From: Escherichia phage UPEC01
Length of the DNA: 64,000 nucleotides
Sequence record: MW233709
Strand: one strand, 5' to 3'
Below are positions 4,746 through 50,396 of the stretch, piece after piece. The first letter of the stretch is position 1. Each line of letters opens with the position of its first letter. The position numbers and the translations under genes were made by a program. A model generated the notes under the pieces. The model saw only the letters and a list, made by a program, of their open reading frames with translations. It searched no databases and had not been told where the DNA came from.

Positions 4746-5041
4746 TGACTCATGAAGAGCTTTTTGACCAAATCTATTTTATTCCAAAGGTTAGGTCTGA
4801 AGATTTCGTAAAGAATTTTGAAATCTTTAATAAAGCAAATTTCTTTGAGTACGTGTTTTTGTCTGGACCTTTTATTGGGTCCAGATTTCGTTGCACTGCT
4901 CCGAGTATTCGCTTGATGAAGTTGGTTCCTTACTTTACTCTGGAATTTATTTCTGGACCATGTAGGGGTATTATAACTCGTAGCCTCCTGACGTATGACC
5001 AGGATGTGCGATTAATTAGTGACTGGAAAAAATATGTCTAA
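4745..5041 (+). CDS. hypothetical protein
   Basis: Intact ORF abutting upstream stop. Confidence 0.5.
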   Translation: MTHEELFDQIYFIPKVRSEDFVKNFEIFNKANFFEYVFLSGPFIGSRFRCTAPSIRLMKLVPYFTLEFISGPCRGIITRSLLTYDQDVRLISDWKKYV

Positions 5042-5248
5042 ACTGACGATTGAAGGCTCTGATGCAGCCTTGAAAAGATTCGTTGAATGGTTTAATGGCC
5101 CTGGTGAACAAGACTTTCTGGAAGTCTGGGACGGTGGTCAATGGAACGGTAAAGAACTGGTTTATCCTAGCACTTATATCTCCGTACAAGGTTGGACGGA
5201 TGGGCTTCGTTTGGTAGAATATGATATCGCAACCGGCGAGGAAGTGAA

Positions 5249-5252
<4 letters not shown>
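5019..5252 (+). CDS. hypothetical protein (start uncertain, 5019 or 5034)
   Basis: Intact ORF in array. Confidence 0.45.
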
Positions 5253-5831
<579 letters not shown>

Positions 5832-5832
<1 letters not shown>

Positions 5833-5888
5833 TGTACAAGCAGGTTGAAATGAGTTATGATTATCCCATCAAACAAAAGGAGATAATC
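5832..5888 (+). promoter_or_regulatory. early promoter cassette
   Basis: GTGTACAA 5832-5839, TATGAT -10-like, leader ATCCCATCAAACAAAAGGAG. Confidence 0.5.
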
Positions 5889-6347
5889 ATGACTACTATC
5901 GATTCAAGTGTTTACATTCGCCGCAATAAACTTCGTCGTATTTTTGAAACGGAGTTCCTCAAAATTAATAATGCTATCAACAAGGCTTGTAAAGAAGCAG
6001 GTCTTGAAGCATTCTTCATTAAGTACAGTCCACACCTGTTGGACCGTGCAATCCAACGTGAAATTGACGAACAATATGTTTTTGACTTGTTTGGAAAAAT
6101 CACACCACATGTAAAAGAAATCGTTGAATTCCTGGAGATGAAACCACTCCCGGAAGTTGAAGCACAAATTGACCCGAGTGTGAACTACCGTCCACTTCGT
6201 CTGGAAATCACAGACAAGAACCTATGGTTAGGAATGACAGTTAACCCAGCTCTTCCTGGGAAGTCTCCAACCATGTGTTGTCGTATGGCGTTTGTTAACT
6301 CTAATCGTCTTGAAGGAAAAATTAGCACAAAAGTGATTTATATCTAA
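5889..6347 (+). CDS. hypothetical protein
   Basis: ATG after AAGGAG SD at end of promoter leader. Confidence 0.55.
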   Translation: MTTIDSSVYIRRNKLRRIFETEFLKINNAINKACKEAGLEAFFIKYSPHLLDRAIQREIDEQYVFDLFGKITPHVKEIVEFLEMKPLPEVEAQIDPSVNYRPLRLEITDKNLWLGMTVNPALPGKSPTMCCRMAFVNSNRLEGKISTKVIYI

Positions 6348-6357
6348 TGGGGAATTC

Positions 6358-6900
6358 ATGAAAAAAGTAATCGCCACCTTACTATTGACAGTTAGTATGT
6401 CTGCCCATAGCGTAGAGCCTACTTTCAGTAATGAACAGATGGAAAATCTTCAATATGCTTATGCGTTTGGAGAACAGTTCCAGAAAAATGGTAAGTACAA
6501 AGAAAATCCGCACCAACATAATGGTTTGGGATATATCATGGCTGGTTTAACCTGGCAGGAATCATCTGCTGGTGTTAATACAGGATTAAATAAAGATAAG
6601 CATCATGCATATGGTATATTCCAAAATTATCTTCCAACCGTGCGCGCGCGCGTAAAACAGGTTGGGTGGACAATGACAGATAAAGAAATAATCAAGATGA
6701 TAAGCAAGAGAGAGAACAGTGCACGCTGGGCTTATATTGAGTTTTCATACTGGTTAAACATTCACAAGGGGGACATAAGAAAAACACTATCATCATATAA
6801 CGCAGGGTGGAATGTGAAAGCTGGAAATACGTATGCTTCGCAAGTCCTAGAAAAAGCTAACTACTTAAAATCACGAGGCCTATTAAAAACGGTGGATTAA
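6358..6900 (+). CDS. secreted lytic-transglycosylase-like protein (candidate)
   Basis: N-terminal signal peptide MKKVIATLLLTVSMSAHS; SLT-like motifs TWQESSAG, GIFQ, SYNAGWN. Confidence 0.55.
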   Translation: MKKVIATLLLTVSMSAHSVEPTFSNEQMENLQYAYAFGEQFQKNGKYKENPHQHNGLGYIMAGLTWQESSAGVNTGLNKDKHHAYGIFQNYLPTVRARVKQVGWTMTDKEIIKMISKRENSARWAYIEFSYWLNIHKGDIRKTLSSYNAGWNVKAGNTYASQVLEKANYLKSRGLLKTVD

Positions 6901-7260
6901 ATGGTAAGAGTCATAACTTTAGCCATAGGGTTAGTATTCAGCACGGGAGGAATAGCTTCAGTACAGAGCGATGACAATAATAGCATCATAGAATATGCAA
7001 CGAGGACGGCCAAAGATTATTGCGCATCAAGCAATGTGGATTGTGTAATCCGGTTCAGTGCCAAGCTCACCGCGGCATATAAAGACGGTCAAAATGATGT
7101 TGAACACACTCTTATGAAAAAGAGCACTTTATCCAACAAATATGAAAAGAAACTATTTGAAATGGATTGTATTCTGTCGAGTGCCAAATATAAAGCGGCC
7201 TGCACCAGTATGGTTGACAGGTTAGTCGATTCCTATAACAGAGGATTGAACTCTAAATGA
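6901..7260 (+). CDS. secreted Cys-containing hypothetical protein
   Basis: Signal-peptide-like N-terminus MVRVITLAIGLVFSTGGIASV; four Cys. Confidence 0.5.
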   Translation: MVRVITLAIGLVFSTGGIASVQSDDNNSIIEYATRTAKDYCASSNVDCVIRFSAKLTAAYKDGQNDVEHTLMKKSTLSNKYEKKLFEMDCILSSAKYKAACTSMVDRLVDSYNRGLNSK

Positions 7261-7721
7261 TTGTTAACTATATTAAGGGCGATATTGTCGCCCTTTTTCT
7301 CGAAGGAAACATCATAGCTCATGGCTGTAACTGCTTCCATACAATGGGTTCAGGCGTTGCTGGCCAACTGGCAAAGGCTTACCCAAAAATTTTAGAAATG
7401 GATAAGACAACAACTGAATACGGTTCCCGAGAAAAACTCGGTGATATGTCTATTGTTTTTAAACATAAGCCAACTGGATTTGGTATGTGCTATAACCTTT
7501 ATACCCAGTATGAACCGGGTCCAAATCTGGATTATGGCGCTTTAGTAAATTGTATGATAGAATTAAATCTACAAGCAGAAACCCTTTTGTTTAAACCGGT
7601 AATTTATATTCCCAGGATTGGCTGTGGTATTGCAGGTGGTGATTGGGATAAGGTTTCCCGGTTAATTGATATGTTTACTCCTGATATTGATTTGATAGTG
7701 GTGGATTATGAGTCAAACTAG
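7257..7721 (+). CDS. macro-domain-like protein (candidate ADP-ribose binding/hydrolase)
   Basis: Motifs GDIV, AHGCNCFHTMGSGVAGQL and IGCGIAGGDWDKV resemble macro-domain signatures. Confidence 0.45.
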   Translation: MIVNYIKGDIVALFLEGNIIAHGCNCFHTMGSGVAGQLAKAYPKILEMDKTTTEYGSREKLGDMSIVFKHKPTGFGMCYNLYTQYEPGPNLDYGALVNCMIELNLQAETLLFKPVIYIPRIGCGIAGGDWDKVSRLIDMFTPDIDLIVVDYESN

Positions 7722-7914
7722 TATTCTTAAAAATGCTCACTGTGAAAAGTGTAAATGGCCAGTTGTTTTTGCTTTATGCAACGATGAAATGATATGTGAT
7801 TTTGATTATTGGTGCTATTGTTCTAATAAAGGGTGTGTGAATCATGCAGGCGCCGGTTTCTATTCCGGGTTTCAACCGTATCCAGACTTTGTAAAACAAG
7901 GTGAACCGAAATGA
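7708..7914 (+). CDS. hypothetical Cys-rich small protein
   Basis: Ten Cys in 68 aa (CEKCKW, CYCSNKGC). Confidence 0.5.
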   Translation: MSQTSILKNAHCEKCKWPVVFALCNDEMICDFDYWCYCSNKGCVNHAGAGFYSGFQPYPDFVKQGEPK

Positions 7915-8096
7915 GTTTAAGTATTAGTCAGAAAAGTAGATTGTTTGAGCTTATCCATGAGCTTTTGGACGAGCATACGGAAGCGAACGCTTTTTATGAT
8001 GAATACGGCCCGATAGATGCCGAGCATCAGGAAGAATTTGCTAATCGGTTTGATGAGAAAGAAAACGAATTAATTGCTTATGTGAATACTCTTTAA
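7911..8096 (+). CDS. hypothetical small acidic protein
   Basis: ATGA-coupled ORF. Confidence 0.45.
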   Translation: MSLSISQKSRLFELIHELLDEHTEANAFYDEYGPIDAEHQEEFANRFDEKENELIAYVNTL

Positions 8097-8105
8097 GAAG
8101 GTGAT

Positions 8106-8678
8106 ATGGCGAGTTTAATTTATCATTACGCGGCAATGAATGCAGGCAAAACAGCTTCATTGCTGACTGCAGCTTATTCCTATAAAGAGCGTGGAATGAG
8201 TGTGCTTTTGCTAAAACCTGTTATTGATAATCGGGACTCGGAATCTGAAATTAAATCACGTATTGGTATTAGCCAGGAAGCAAACCTGGTAACGGCCGAC
8301 ATGAACCTGTTTGAATTCTATAAATGGGCCGAGTCTCAAAAGGATATCCATTGTGTCCTGGTCGATGAAGCTCAATTTTTGTTACCAGAGCAAATTGACC
8401 AGTTAGCACGAGTGGTTGATAATTATAATATCCCCGTTATGTGTTACGGGCTAAGAACAGATTTTCGGGGTCAGTTATTTCCCGGTTCGGCCAGACTTCT
8501 GGCTATTTCGGATAAACTGGTTGAATTAAAGGGCGTCTGCCATTGCGGCCGGAAAGCAACCATGACCGCTCGAGTAATCGACGGTGCTGCTGTAAAGGTC
8601 GGCGAGCAAGTATTGGTCGGTGGGAATGAATCGTACGTATCTTTATGCAGGAAACATTGGCTCGAATTGACAAGCTGA
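8106..8678 (+). CDS. tk: thymidine kinase
   Basis: P-loop NAGKTASLL, zinc motif CHCGRKAT..C; matches recalled T4 Tk. Confidence 0.92.
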   Translation: MASLIYHYAAMNAGKTASLLTAAYSYKERGMSVLLLKPVIDNRDSESEIKSRIGISQEANLVTADMNLFEFYKWAESQKDIHCVLVDEAQFLLPEQIDQLARVVDNYNIPVMCYGLRTDFRGQLFPGSARLLAISDKLVELKGVCHCGRKATMTARVIDGAAVKVGEQVLVGGNESYVSLCRKHWLELTS

Positions 8679-8685
8679 GGTCCTT

Positions 8686-8961
8686 ATGATATATAAGATT
8701 TGGACGTATATCTCTATTTTTGTTATTGCTGGAATTGCATTTATCCCCACACAAACAGATAGCGAGAGATATGAAAGGGAAATTGAAATAGTAGCAAGCA
8801 CGTACCATTCTGTTAATAAAGAATGCCCGAATAAAAATGGAATAAATTTACAAAAAGCACATTATATGCTGACTGTTACTAGCCCAGTGCAAAGAATATG
8901 GGTTGATAGACATTTTTCTGATTTATTTGCAATATATTGTTTCAAGTTTAAAAGATTATAA
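8686..8961 (+). CDS. hypothetical membrane-anchored protein
   Basis: N-terminal hydrophobic helix ISIFVIAGIAFIP. Confidence 0.5.
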   Translation: MIYKIWTYISIFVIAGIAFIPTQTDSERYEREIEIVASTYHSVNKECPNKNGINLQKAHYMLTVTSPVQRIWVDRHFSDLFAIYCFKFKRL

Positions 8962-8964
8962 ATA
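8957..8964 (+). promoter_or_regulatory. late-promoter-like TATAAATA
   Basis: Exact TATAAATA 8957-8964 upstream of CDS 9036. Confidence 0.35.
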
Positions 8965-9035
8965 CAGTTACTAACTAGTATTCCGCTATGTTAAGGCTGC
9001 AAAGCGTAATCATGACCAACAATAAGGAGTCCTTT

Positions 9036-9332
9036 ATGGACCTTATTCGAGGACTTTCTCTAAGTCTATTACTAATGGGCTGTTTAGGCCCAAATCTGTC
9101 CTCTGCTACAGATGGTAAATTTACCCAGTACGCAGATAGTGCGATGCAAATCTATTCGCAATTCAAAGAACCCAGCGTCGAGCAGTCCGAACAATTTTGG
9201 GCTTTTATTAAAACCGAATGGAACAATAAGAGTCAATGTGTAAATGAAATCACATGTCAAATTGATGGCCGGGCTGCTGCAGTCGAATATGCTAAATTAA
9301 TGAAGGTAAAATTGGAAGATGAAATTCGATGA
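9036..9332 (+). CDS. hypothetical secreted/lipoprotein-like protein
   Basis: AAGGAG SD 6 nt before ATG 9036; signal-like LSLSLLLMGC. Confidence 0.5.
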   Translation: MDLIRGLSLSLLLMGCLGPNLSSATDGKFTQYADSAMQIYSQFKEPSVEQSEQFWAFIKTEWNNKSQCVNEITCQIDGRAAAVEYAKLMKVKLEDEIR

Positions 9333-49176: not shown

Positions 49177-49737
49177 ATGAACATCATCAAATCTGATACC
49201 GAACCCAACCAGTTAAAATTTAGTGAAATGGAGATAGCTTCATTATTTGAATGCCGTACATCAAAGGTTGATAAAACCTTGCATTCAAACATCAACTCAA
49301 TTATCAAGCCAAGGTTGTCTATACCCGATACAGTCTTGTGGCGCGGGGTAACCCAGCAAGAGATTGATTTGTTAGATGAAGCAAAAGAATCAATGCAACC
49401 TTTTGAATTTGGACGGATAACCTCCTTTACAGAAGACTATGGTATTGCCAGGGATTTTGCTGCAATGGAATATGCATCAAGGACTATCGTCAGATTGAAT
49501 CAGACAAAAGCTTTTTGTTACCATGATGCGATGCGCAAAATCGCGCTTGATGTTCCGCTGGAATTCTTCAATACAGTTTCTGGTTCCGAACAGGCAGCAA
49601 CGTTAAGACGTGAAGAATACATGGACATGATTGATTCTGAGCTTGAATGGTTTGTTCCAGTTGACCAGAAATTCGTGGTGGTTGATGCTGGATTTGTTGG
49701 TGATTATTATGTTCTTGACTGTGTACAAGAGCAATAA
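49177..49737 (+). CDS. ADP-ribosyltransferase (ModB-like by order)
   Basis: R-S-E-type ART motifs: LWRGV, SFT, ELEW. Confidence 0.65.
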   Translation: MNIIKSDTEPNQLKFSEMEIASLFECRTSKVDKTLHSNINSIIKPRLSIPDTVLWRGVTQQEIDLLDEAKESMQPFEFGRITSFTEDYGIARDFAAMEYASRTIVRLNQTKAFCYHDAMRKIALDVPLEFFNTVSGSEQAATLRREEYMDMIDSELEWFVPVDQKFVVVDAGFVGDYYVLDCVQEQ

Positions 49738-49781
49738 GACACGTTAAGATGCTCCTATCAACTACTGATGAGGATAATAAA
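49721..49781 (+). promoter_or_regulatory. early promoter cassette overlapping 3' end of upstream ART gene
   Basis: GTGTACAA 49721-49728, GTTAAGATG, CTCCTATCAACTACTGATGAGGA. Confidence 0.45.
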
Positions 49782-50396
49782 ATGCTGTACACTGATGACG
49801 TTTTGAATGGAATTATTGACACTGCCGCTTCTAGTGAGTCTTTTCGTGACCAATGTCAAGCAGAGATTGATGCTCTTTATACAGATAATGAGCAATCAGT
49901 ACTCTGGCAGTGTATGGAAAATAAACCTGACCTGATTCAAGAAGACTTAACCAGGATTATCCGCAACAATCTGAATACTACACCGCCGGCAGCGTTGTTC
50001 CGCGGTATATCAAAGAAAACCATGGAATACCTGGAAGATTTAAGATATGTTGGTGCGACAATTGAGTTCAACCGTGTGATGAGTTTTTCCAGAGACTGGC
50101 AGGTTGCAAGAAATTTCGCATCATATAGTTTCTATGGCACAAGGAATATTTTCTGCATAAACAATGCACCTTATGCGTATAACTATCAGGAAGCAATCTT
50201 TAAAATGATTTGCGGTGCTCCTCCTGAAGAGTTCAATGGTGCATATCCAGAAGCAACCAGGAAGTCAAACTTACACCTAGTTAATGATGAGGATGAGTTT
50301 ATGTTTCCCGCTGGGACTACGCTTCGCGTAGATTTGATTGAGAAACACCCATTGAATAACCTTTATACTGTTTGGCATTTGACTGTTTTGAACTAA
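49782..50396 (+). CDS. ADP-ribosyltransferase (ModA-like by order)
   Basis: LFRGI, SFSRD, DEDEF; ORF-track start lies inside promoter leader. Confidence 0.65.
   Translation: MLYTDDVLNGIIDTAASSESFRDQCQAEIDALYTDNEQSVLWQCMENKPDLIQEDLTRIIRNNLNTTPPAALFRGISKKTMEYLEDLRYVGATIEFNRVMSFSRDWQVARNFASYSFYGTRNIFCINNAPYAYNYQEAIFKMICGAPPEEFNGAYPEATRKSNLHLVNDEDEFMFPAGTTLRVDLIEKHPLNNLYTVWHLTVLN

Follow-up and report, generated by a model that had tools for sequence, protein, structure and literature searches.

The question raised by this locus is whether three consecutive genes, two of which start with what look like export signals and the third of which resembles a macrodomain, act as a single unit. A sequence-only reading of the window (the whole stretch of DNA analysed, 64,000 nucleotides from Escherichia phage UPEC01, record MW233709) had proposed such a unit, namely an uncharacterised ADP-ribosylation reader, eraser or counter-defence factor together with an envelope-acting module. 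The three open reading frames (ORFs) lie on the plus strand exactly where that reading placed them, and all of the SLT and macrodomain motifs that it quoted were located.

The observation holds, although most of it is already known. Across the whole window the sequence matches the T4-like phage Escherichia virus TH22 at 100% identity, and the block corresponds to vs.1–vs–tk.4, a T4 early-gene run carried here by a T4-like coliphage, that is, a set of orthologs of catalogued T4 early genes. As a discovery it matters little, since these genes have long been catalogued and the macrodomain was recently identified as AdfM. The explanation favoured here, which we regard as likely, is that the run consists of an anti-DarT2 macrodomain plus a separate, exported vs.1/vs pair.

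Gene order and identity

The gene order regB–vs.1–vs–tk.4–tk.3…tk is as in T4 and is kept among close T4 relatives (Table 1). T4 Vs.1, Vs and Tk.4 are 66%, 46% and 59% identical to the window proteins, and the PHROG families matched by ORF1 (9.5e-67), ORF2 (phrog_1256, 5.4e-33) and ORF3 (4.4e-70) are those of the T4 genes. Because of these matches, the three frames are real conserved genes and not chance ORFs. Their description as uncharacterised does not hold: they are T4 vs.1, vs and tk.4, the second of which had gone unrecognised as Vs. SLT and A1pp/macro matches for vs.1 and tk.4 have been in print since 2006 (PMC1524935).

The genes are tightly packed. The stop of vs.1 is followed at the very next base by the start of vs, the vs/tk.4 junction is a shared ATGA overlap, and tk.4 overlaps the downstream tk.3-like frame by 14 nt. 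Scans for sigma-70 promoters (9 sites against 10.3 expected) and terminators (2 against 2.3) were at chance level. MotA-box middle-promoter motifs are enriched across the window (9 against 3.1 expected), with none seen within 5-9 kb, and an Rfam search of 5000-9000 gave no match.

Table 1. Features of the vs.1–vs–tk.4 region and the distal ADP-ribosyltransferase genes, in window coordinates.
Feature	Coordinates	Strand	Length or residues	Basis
regB endoribonuclease, directly 5' of vs.1	5832..6347	+		Pfam REGB_T4 2.1e-71; T4 position identical
vs.1 ortholog (ORF1), predicted exported SLT-family (lytic-transglycosylase-like) protein	6358..6900	+	180 aa	
Predicted Sec signal peptide of Vs.1, MKKVIATLLLTVSMSAHS then VEP	6358..6411	+	aa 1-18	rule-based
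vs ortholog (ORF2), 'valyl-tRNA synthetase modifier' family	6901..7260	+	119 aa	PF26829 / phrog_1256
Predicted signal peptide of Vs, MVRVITLAIGLVFSTGGIAS then VQS	6901..6960	+	aa 1-20	rule-based
tk.4 / adfM ortholog (ORF3), stand-alone macrodomain (ALC1-like class, predicted SCO6735/Bt_1257-type active site)	7257..7721	+	154 aa	
tk.3-like phage zinc-binding protein, overlapping tk.4 end	7708..7914	+		Pfam Phage_zn_bind 1.3e-28
Thymidine kinase (tk)	8106..8678	+		Pfam TK 4.5e-57
rI antiholin (periplasmic lysis-inhibition protein)	9036..9332	+		Pfam Antiholin 3.5e-30
ModA/ModB-like ADP-ribosyltransferases (two)	49177..50396	+		phrog_832 'RNA polymerase ADP-ribosylase' 6.1e-27, 1.1e-38

The Vs protein

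Signal peptides were called by rules (a basic n-region, a 10-residue Kyte-Doolittle (KD) window and small residues at -3 and -1) and not by a trained predictor. By these rules both Vs.1 and Vs start with a Sec (SPase I) signal peptide, as the sequence-only reading had anticipated. Their 10-residue windows reach KD 2.4 and 2.9, and in the predicted structures N-termini of low pLDDT precede confident domains. An NCBIfam search with the two proteins gave no useful match. For both Vs.1 and Vs, export and activity are inferred.

Assignment of ORF2 to the Vs family is read via its homologs (28 of 28 carry PF26829), phrog_1256 and the identity with T4 Vs. The protein has exactly four Cys, the number counted earlier, at positions 41, 48, 90 and 101; two Cys pairs are invariant in the family and are placed at hairpin turns. 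Its N-terminus is basic with a hydrophobic core (KD 2.85), AF2 pLDDT is below 50 over aa 1-22, and T4 Vs has a canonical ASA/D site. The signal-peptide layout is found in all full-length Vs proteins and is absent in an N-terminally truncated fragment (P0114). Distant relatives keep an export signal, for example a lipobox (LSGC, P0240) or an AFS/S site (P0241), and also keep the Cys pairs.

Predicted export looks to be in conflict with the name 'valyl-tRNA synthetase modifier'. The genetics and biochemistry of Neidhardt and Marchin in the 1970s are said to have the vs product act on cytoplasmic valyl-tRNA synthetase (ValRS), a placement that conflicts with it. Vs could instead be cytoplasmic as named, with its hydrophobic N-terminus serving as a membrane anchor or ValRS-binding surface and its Cys unbonded. 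The annotation is long-standing; reportedly, T4 vs+ makes a thermolabile host ValRS more stable in vivo, and the fitness defect of T4 vs mutants in minimal medium would suit a protein active in translation or in the supply of amino acids. This alternative is doubtful, if still to be taken seriously, given that the signal-peptide layout is kept while the sequence drifts and in one distant relative is swapped for a lipoprotein signal, that the two invariant Cys pairs sit where hairpins would be stapled, and that vs is coupled to the exported SLT-like gene vs.1. The computed mass of T4 Vs is 13.1 kDa for the precursor and 11.0 kDa for the processed form, and it is the latter that is nearer to the purified ValRS-modifying factor, reportedly of about 10 kDa.

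Mature Vs is a four-helix protein of about 11 kDa, probably with two disulfide staples. Tentatively, and with rather low confidence in the full proposal, Vs may be such an exported, disulfide-stapled protein paired with Vs.1 as a two-gene envelope module, e.g. as a transglycosylase regulator or inhibitor. Inhibition of Vs.1 by Vs would then be comparable to that of gp5 lysozyme by Spackle, or to the neutralisation of Tse3 by Tsi3. No report of Vs export was found in the literature searched. If Vs is periplasmic, the minimal-medium phenotype of vs would reflect cell-wall physiology and not aminoacylation, and either the ORF-to-function assignment of the 1980s would be wrong or Vs would have a second location. 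The predicted export of Vs and Vs.1, their distant linkage and their shared fitness loss in T4 transposon data put a question mark over a 50-year-old label.

The Vs.1 protein

Vs.1 contains the motifs TWQESSAG (aa 65), GIFQ (aa 86) and SYNAGWN (aa 146), in agreement with the Glu-Ser, G-L-M-Q-type and A-Y-N-x-G-type motifs of the SLT family. In 33 Vs.1 sequences, down to 42% identity, E68-S69-S70, G86-I-F-Q89 and S146-Y-N-A-G150 vary little or not at all. By fold comparison the predicted structure has a lysozyme-like (goose-type) fold, with Foldseek E-values of only 0.04-0.3 and low model confidence at residues 73-79. The proposed SLT likeness was therefore recovered in both motifs and fold, though the window protein scores below the cut-off against Pfam SLT (PF01464; 12.7 vs 21.3 bits, E 0.096). 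The same model is matched at E<=0.01 in 31 of the 33 relatives (best 1.3e-7), and PF01464 is annotated on several database homologs.

Single-sequence and profile searches of PDB sequences with Vs.1 returned only metacaspase and amylin at E 0.4-0.9; the comparison of folds alone was productive. An hhalign comparison with the Slt70 catalytic domain, used solely for residue correspondence, has a probability of 0.6%, yet E68 and GIFQ align with RQES and GLMQ. The N-terminus has a net charge of +2, a hydrophobic core of KD 2.39 and A-H-S at -3 to -1, and this layout is present in all 33 aligned sequences despite poor sequence conservation there.

Because Vs.1 keeps the catalytic Glu-Ser together with the G-x-F-Q and Y-N-A-G groove motifs, it probably cleaves or binds peptidoglycan. 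As a small, basic SLT protein of lysozyme fold, it would do so in the periplasm early in infection. It is unlikely, in our estimate, that Vs.1 is no active lytic transglycosylase at all and serves as a non-catalytic peptidoglycan-binding protein or decoy, e.g. one that modulates host transglycosylases or phage lysozymes. The divergence of Vs.1, seen in its sub-threshold Pfam score, the lack of PDB sequence matches and the weak Foldseek values, would suit such a role, as would the low-confidence segment at 73-79 and the fact that T4 vs.1 is non-essential. Against it, the catalytic Glu, the Ser and both groove motifs are invariant in the 33 sequences, as is expected under selection for catalysis. 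A published vs.1 function or a 1,6-anhydro-MurNAc assay was not found in the literature searched.

The stand-alone macrodomain

ORF3 is a macrodomain with conserved catalytic residues and is the ortholog of T4 AdfM. The motifs GDIV (aa 8), HTMGSGVAGQL (aa 28) and IGCGIAGG (aa 121), from which a macrodomain had been suspected, are accompanied by a Pfam Macro (PF01661) match that passes the gathering cut-off (33.5 bits vs 22, E 4.4e-8) and aligns residues 22-136 with model positions 2-117 of 118. Orthology with T4 Tk.4 is given by a full-length alignment (152 aa, 59% identical, E 4e-70) and by the position between vs and tk.3. Searched against the PDB, the family profile ranks Bt_1257 first (7e-20), followed by TARG1 (3.6e-18), SCO6735 (2.8e-16), yeast Poa1p (1e-14) and DarG, the last from Mtb (5e-12) and Taq (6e-10).

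The residues H22, G23, N25, Q84, P119, G122, G124 and W130 are invariant in the family. Q84 is kept in all 29 members and aligns to TARG1 K84 and to the Gln of 'NMIGQ' in Bt_1257. A mark of the SCO6735/Bt_1257 subclass, members of which cleave thymidine-linked ADP-ribose off DNA, is a Gln where DarG (K80) and TARG1 (K84) have their catalytic Lys. ORF3 has this Gln and, with His22 and Asn25, the full signature of the subclass; the Lys/Gln equivalence to DarG rests on the TARG1 alignment and a statement in PMC9411070. In SCO6735 this residue is Gln85, and the Q85A mutant is inactive (PMC9411070). SCO6735 strips thymidine-linked ADP-ribose from DNA and rescues DarT toxicity, and in vitro it also takes protein-linked ADP-ribose off PARP1 (PMC9411070). 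The subclass also stands out by its mobile loop, which exceeds that of DarG or TARG1 by about five residues (PMC9411070). In the profile alignment the phage family has a 6-residue gap opposite 'YKDSKGLPPIRY' of Bt_1257, and the ORF3 loop has the length of that in TARG1. Because the longer loop is absent, ORF3 is an atypical member of the subclass.

The protein differs from DarG and TARG1 in other respects. The macro part of NCBIfam antitoxin_DarG (NF048014) matches ORF3 at 1.3e-6, and as a full DarG it falls far short (27.9 bits vs an equivalog cut-off of 250, model positions 2-138 of 338). The Lys84-Asp125 dyad of TARG1/OARD1 is not found; the aligned positions are Gln84 and Ala126. As judged from these alignments, the T4-type AdfM active site is of the Gln type (SCO6735-like) and not of the Lys type (DarG/TARG1), but with a short loop. 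A Gln-type site predicts H22, N25 and Q84 as the residues of interest, and it suggests that phages may have recruited a branch of ALC1-like macrodomains other than that of the cognate antitoxin.

In T4, tk.4 (renamed adfM) is required for resistance to DarTG2; the knockout is DarTG2-sensitive, and tk.4 is the single significant hit in a DarTG2 transposon screen (bioRxiv 10.1101/2025.11.20.689424). In vitro, ADP-ribose written by DarT2 is taken off by the AdfM of phiKZ, a chimallivirus macrodomain. For the window protein we infer the enzymatic activity from the T4 ortholog, the anti-DarTG2 phenotype being that of this 59%-identical protein as reported in a preprint. Most likely, given the orthology and the presence of His22, Asn25 and Gln84, Tk.4/AdfM is cytoplasmic and hydrolyses ADP-ribose off thymidine bases in single-stranded DNA. 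Modification by host DarT2 would thereby be undone, allowing the phage to replicate in DarTG2-carrying hosts.

The counter-defence role proposed by the sequence-only reading was thus right in kind, as T4 AdfM acts against DarTG2; the part that did not stand is that the function is uncharacterised, since the T4 gene has been assigned. The two ADP-ribosyltransferases that it pointed to elsewhere in the genome do match phrog_832 (6e-27 and 1e-38). No link of the macrodomain to phage ModA/ModB was found, and DNA modified by host DarT2 is the single target that has been tested.

It is improbable that the macrodomain is mainly an A1pp phosphatase (acting on ADP-ribose-1''-phosphate or O-acetyl-ADP-ribose), or that it reverses or trims ADP-ribosylation or RNAylation by Alt, ModA and ModB. 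Database labels such as 'phosphatase' and 'Poa1p-like', together with the Poa1p match of the profile, point that way; ModA/ModB-like enzymes encoded in the genome could write its substrates, and the action of SCO6735 on PARP1 extends to protein-linked ADP-ribose. However, the sole genetic phenotype reported for T4 tk.4 is the loss of DarTG2 resistance, and because the gene is dispensable on K-12 in LB and M9, there is no detectable housekeeping role on Mod or Alt targets. Alt and Mod enzymes modify arginine, and cleavage of the arginine-ADP-ribose linkage is not known for ALC1-like macrodomains.

Linkage of the three genes

In one distant contig (L003) vs.1 and vs are adjacent, with an antiholin close by, and at an hhalign probability of 0.2% the ORF that follows them is no macrodomain. 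In another (L004) vs.1 adjoins a lysozyme gene, and no macrodomain is seen next to it. Counted gene by gene, vs.1 occurs in 2069 phage records, vs in 797 and the macrodomain in 2768. In T4, the LB-versus-M9 transposon screen gave log2FC values of -2.19 for vs, -0.87 for vs.1 and -0.07 for tk.4; vs mutants fall short of full fitness in minimal medium, and on K-12 the phage can do without tk.4 in either medium (T4 transposon data). The macrodomain lacks a signal peptide and would therefore belong to another compartment than the two proteins predicted to be exported. The genes vs.1 and vs are a tightly linked pair, and the macrodomain is functionally separate; it is T4 synteny that keeps the three side by side, not membership in one joint system.

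A single module of macrodomain and two exported proteins, combining ADP-ribosylation erasure or reading with envelope action and possibly tied to the phage ADP-ribosyltransferases, would fit the abutting or overlapping genes with no promoter or terminator detected between them, the order kept in close T4 relatives and the ModA/ModB-like genes in the same genome, but it is highly improbable and largely refuted by the L003 and L004 loci, the unequal spreads and the T4 transposon data, including the DarTG2 screen in which tk.4 alone was significant, while overlapping stops and starts and dense packing are usual throughout T4 early regions.

Comparison with known systems

In comparison with family 1 lytic transglycosylases (Slt70, MltC/D/E/F, EtgA), Vs.1 is minimal, a single domain of some 160 aa that lacks accessory domains. 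Unlike virion or lysis-cassette transglycosylases, it belongs to an early-gene block. Vs shares with T4 Vs the four Cys of the mature protein, the C-terminal SMVDRLVDSYNRGL and the locus position, and nothing distinguishes it from the Vs (PF26829) family.

The macrodomain is of the same class as DarG and TARG1, and a shared substrate class, thymidine-ADP-ribosylated DNA, may be presumed from the T4 DarTG2 screen and the SCO6735 results. In contrast to them, it has Gln in place of the catalytic Lys (DarG K80 / TARG1 K84) and Ala in place of TARG1 D125, and the 154-aa protein lacks the C-terminal DarT-binding domain of DarG. With SCO6735 and Bt_1257 it shares the Gln at the catalytic-Lys position and the conserved His and Asn in the first loop, whereas their mobile loop is longer by about 5-6 residues, an extension absent in the phage protein. 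T4 Tk.4, now AdfM, is the ortholog: it occupies the same place between vs and tk.3 and has H22, N25, Q84, P119, G122, G124 and W130 in common with the window protein. A difference lies in the loop that follows the second glycine-rich motif, which reads IGAGIGKGNW in T4 AdfM and IGCGIAGGDW in the window protein.

Identity and organization of the locus

The three consecutive plus-strand ORFs that the sequence-only reading had picked out are recovered by ORF listing, and they are orthologs of genes already known in T4: vs.1, vs, and tk.4/adfM. The sequence motifs quoted for their products are all found where that reading placed them. Over the 2.9 kb surrounding the three ORFs, Escherichia virus TH22 (MT446396) is 100% identical, and other T4-like coliphages, e.g. 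vB_EcoM_VR20, are 92–98% identical. ORF2 starts on the base immediately after the ORF1 stop, an ATGA overlap joins ORF2 and ORF3, and ORF3 overlaps its downstream neighbour. With regB upstream, and a tk.3-like zinc-binding protein, tk, and rI downstream, the locus matches the T4 gene order regB - vs.1 - vs - tk.4 - tk.3 ... tk - rI.

Features of the vs.1-vs-tk.4 locus and related sites (window coordinates unless a contig is named; identities are pairwise)
Feature	Position	Strand	Description
regB	5832-6347		mechanical start GTG 5832
ORF1, vs.1 ortholog	6358-6900	+	180 aa; 66% identity to T4 Vs.1; phrog_600
ORF2, vs ortholog	6901-7260	+	119 aa; 46% identity to T4 Vs; phrog_1256 'valyl tRNA synthetase modifier'
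ORF3, tk.4/adfM ortholog	7257-7721	+	154 aa; 59% identity to T4 Tk.4; phrog_335 'phosphatase'
rI antiholin	8988-9332		Pfam Antiholin 3.5e-30 from ATG 9036
Middle-promoter-like motifs (examples)	22672, 27468, 30811, 46137, 57012	+	
Two adjacent ModA/ModB-like ADP-ribosyltransferase genes	49177-50396		match phrog_832; Pfam, weak DRAT similarity only
T4 vs counterpart	L001:4387-4734	-	shares signal-peptide layout and Cys pairs
Distant vs.1 homolog locus	L004:3468-4555		ENA ERZ28618579 scaffold_1495; vs.1 directly downstream of PF00959 gene; no vs

The Pfam RegB match starts only at residue 23 of the regB ORF, and translation more likely begins at one of two in-frame ATGs (codons 7 and 20) than at the GTG; one relative is annotated as 165 aa. 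The antiholin gene lies ~1.3 kb downstream of the block. An antiholin is also close to vs.1-vs in the distant T4-like contig L003, and thus genes for several exported proteins lie together in this early region.

Neither sigma-70-like promoter nor terminator signals rise above chance in the ORF1–ORF3 block, which also contains no Rfam family; MotA-box motifs are absent from the block and from 5–9 kb. Window-wide, motifs resembling T4 middle promoters (a -10 element with the MotA box TGCTTNA) number 9 vs 3.1 expected by shuffling. Transcription of the block probably starts at early promoters upstream of it and continues through, as happens in T4.

Vs.1 and Vs as predicted exported proteins

ORF1 alone matches Pfam SLT with an E-value of only 0.096, and PDB sequence searches with Vs.1 give no match. 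At the family level, 31 of 33 Vs.1 members match SLT at E <= 0.01, and the invariant residues (W66, E68, S70, G86, Q89, N90, Y147, N148, G150) form the motifs by which family 1 lytic transglycosylases are recognised: Glu-Ser, G-x-F-Q, and Y-N-A-G. E68 and GIFQ align to 'RQES...GLMQ' of E. coli Slt70, and a Foldseek comparison agrees with the assignment. All members have a basic N-terminus, a hydrophobic core, and small -3/-1 residues; predicted cleavage of ORF1 between AHS and VEP leaves a basic mature protein of 18.7 kDa. The description of Vs.1 as a predicted secreted, SLT-like protein therefore holds; the SLT resemblance of T4 vs.1 was already described in 2006 (PMC1524935). In T4 transposon data, vs.1 is non-essential on rich medium (46/52 TA sites hit). 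The T4-lysozyme-family neighbour in the distant contig L004 may place vs.1 in a peptidoglycan-related context.

ORF2 is a Vs family member by sequence, with the predicted signal peptide and the four Cys that had been noticed. Signal-peptide-like N-termini are predicted by rules in all full-length Vs members (canonical T4 cleavage between ASA and D, TH22 between IAS and V); processing would reduce T4 Vs from 13.1 to 11.0 kDa (computed). In the structural model, residues 1–22 are unstructured and of low confidence, followed by four helices (24–40, 46–69, 74–90, 95–116). The four Cys are invariant in the family and paired 41/48 and 90/101 at two hairpin turns, and the C-terminus is strongly conserved. 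A structural-neighbour search with the model returned none that is informative. The family is very small (8 matches among 1.84 billion representative proteins), and in its two most distant relatives both Cys pairs are preserved, as is a predicted export signal, which is of lipoprotein type (lipobox LSGC) in one and a Sec signal in the other. Because of the signal-peptide layout, the Cys pairs, the model, and the distant relatives' export signals, the evidence points to an exported, disulfide-bonded protein. P0237, a 3694-aa metagenomic protein, matches the Vs profile at E 2e-12; it carries 17 identical tandem repeats, each weakly like Vs positions 14–54, and the match is almost certainly an additive-score artefact.

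The predicted export fits poorly with a cytoplasmic aminoacyl-tRNA synthetase as binding partner, and we did not find this conflict with the 'valyl-tRNA synthetase modifier' label discussed in the accessible literature. Recent T4 work states that the role of ValRS modification is unknown, and reports that T4 lacking vs forms plaques less well in M9 glucose (bioRxiv 10.1101/2025.11.20.689424).

Three genes, not one module

The sequence-only reading had suggested a coupling of the macrodomain to its periplasmic neighbours. This coupling is not supported. In L003 (Vs.1 41% identical), vs.1 and vs are still adjacent, the vs start coinciding with the last base of vs.1, and the ORF that follows is no macrodomain; in L004, from another lineage, vs.1 follows the lysozyme-family gene, and the locus has neither vs nor a macrodomain. 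The phage spreads are also unequal: among 50,697 phage records (E <= 1e-5), relatives of vs.1 occur in 2069, of vs in 797, and of the macrodomain in 2768; the macrodomain count takes in numerous phages that are not of the T4 type (Pseudomonas, Vibrio, and FelixO1-like). In T4 LB-vs-M9 competition (bioRxiv 10.1101/2025.11.20.689424, Ext. Data Table 6, sheet S8), tk.4 (log2FC -0.07) is unlike vs (-2.19, adjusted p 0) and vs.1 (-0.87, p 0.0055, adjusted p 0.155). Even in the liquid LB control, vs and vs.1 carry roughly one tenth of the insertions seen in neighbouring genes (22–27 vs 179–767 mean reads), and tk.4 shows no such depletion. The vs.1 signal may reflect polarity on vs or a function shared with vs. 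Finally, ORF3 has no signal peptide, and thus the macrodomain would act in another compartment than the ORF1 and ORF2 products. The genome does encode at least two ADP-ribosyltransferases, the ModA/ModB-like genes, as had been claimed; no result supports a link between them and the macrodomain.

The macrodomain and its active site

ORF3 scores 33.5 bits against Pfam Macro (cut-off 22) and matches the macro half of the NCBIfam DarG antitoxin model (E 1.3e-6, positions 2–138 of 338). As a profile against PDB, the 29-sequence family alignment matches Bt_1257 (7e-20), human TARG1 (3.6e-18), SCO6735 (2.8e-16), yeast Poa1p (1e-14), and the DarG proteins of M. tuberculosis (5e-12) and T. aquaticus (6e-10). 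The macrodomain call is thus confirmed, and the A1pp/macro match of tk.4 was published in 2006 (PMC1524935). Sixteen positions are invariant in the alignment: G8, H22, G23, N25, C26, G33, A35, D49, N80, Y82, T83, Q84, P119, G122, G124, and W130.

The proposed counter-defence role is probably right for ORF3 by orthology, and the factor is not uncharacterised: the role was previously assigned to the T4 ortholog. In a T4 transposon screen with the host defence system DarTG2, tk.4 was the single gene needed, a clean knockout proved sensitive to DarTG2, and tk.4 now bears the name adfM (bioRxiv 10.1101/2025.11.20.689424). A chimallivirus has an analogous macrodomain, AdfM, which in vitro strips off the ADP-ribose written by DarT2 (PMC13309987).

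In the profile alignment, invariant Gln84 lies opposite the catalytic Lys84 of TARG1, and Ala126 opposite TARG1 Asp125. Bt_1257 likewise has Gln at the Lys84 position, and in SCO6735 the residue structurally equivalent to DarG K80 and TARG1 K84 is Gln85; Q85A and Q85E abolish activity (PMC9411070). SCO6735 also rescues DarT toxicity, and its cleavage of thymidine-linked ADP-ribose from DNA is faster than that by either DarG or TARG1 (PMC9411070). Because of the Gln84 alignment and the Gln85 equivalence, the predicted active site of ORF3 is of SCO6735 type.

What remains of interest at this locus is that 'Vs' and its conserved partner Vs.1 are both predicted to be exported, and that a T4-type AdfM has a Gln-type active site. 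The ORF3 protein differs from the SCO6735/Bt_1257 subclass, whose longer mobile loop corresponds to a 6-residue gap in ORF3, and from DarG, which carries a DarT-binding domain that ORF3 lacks.
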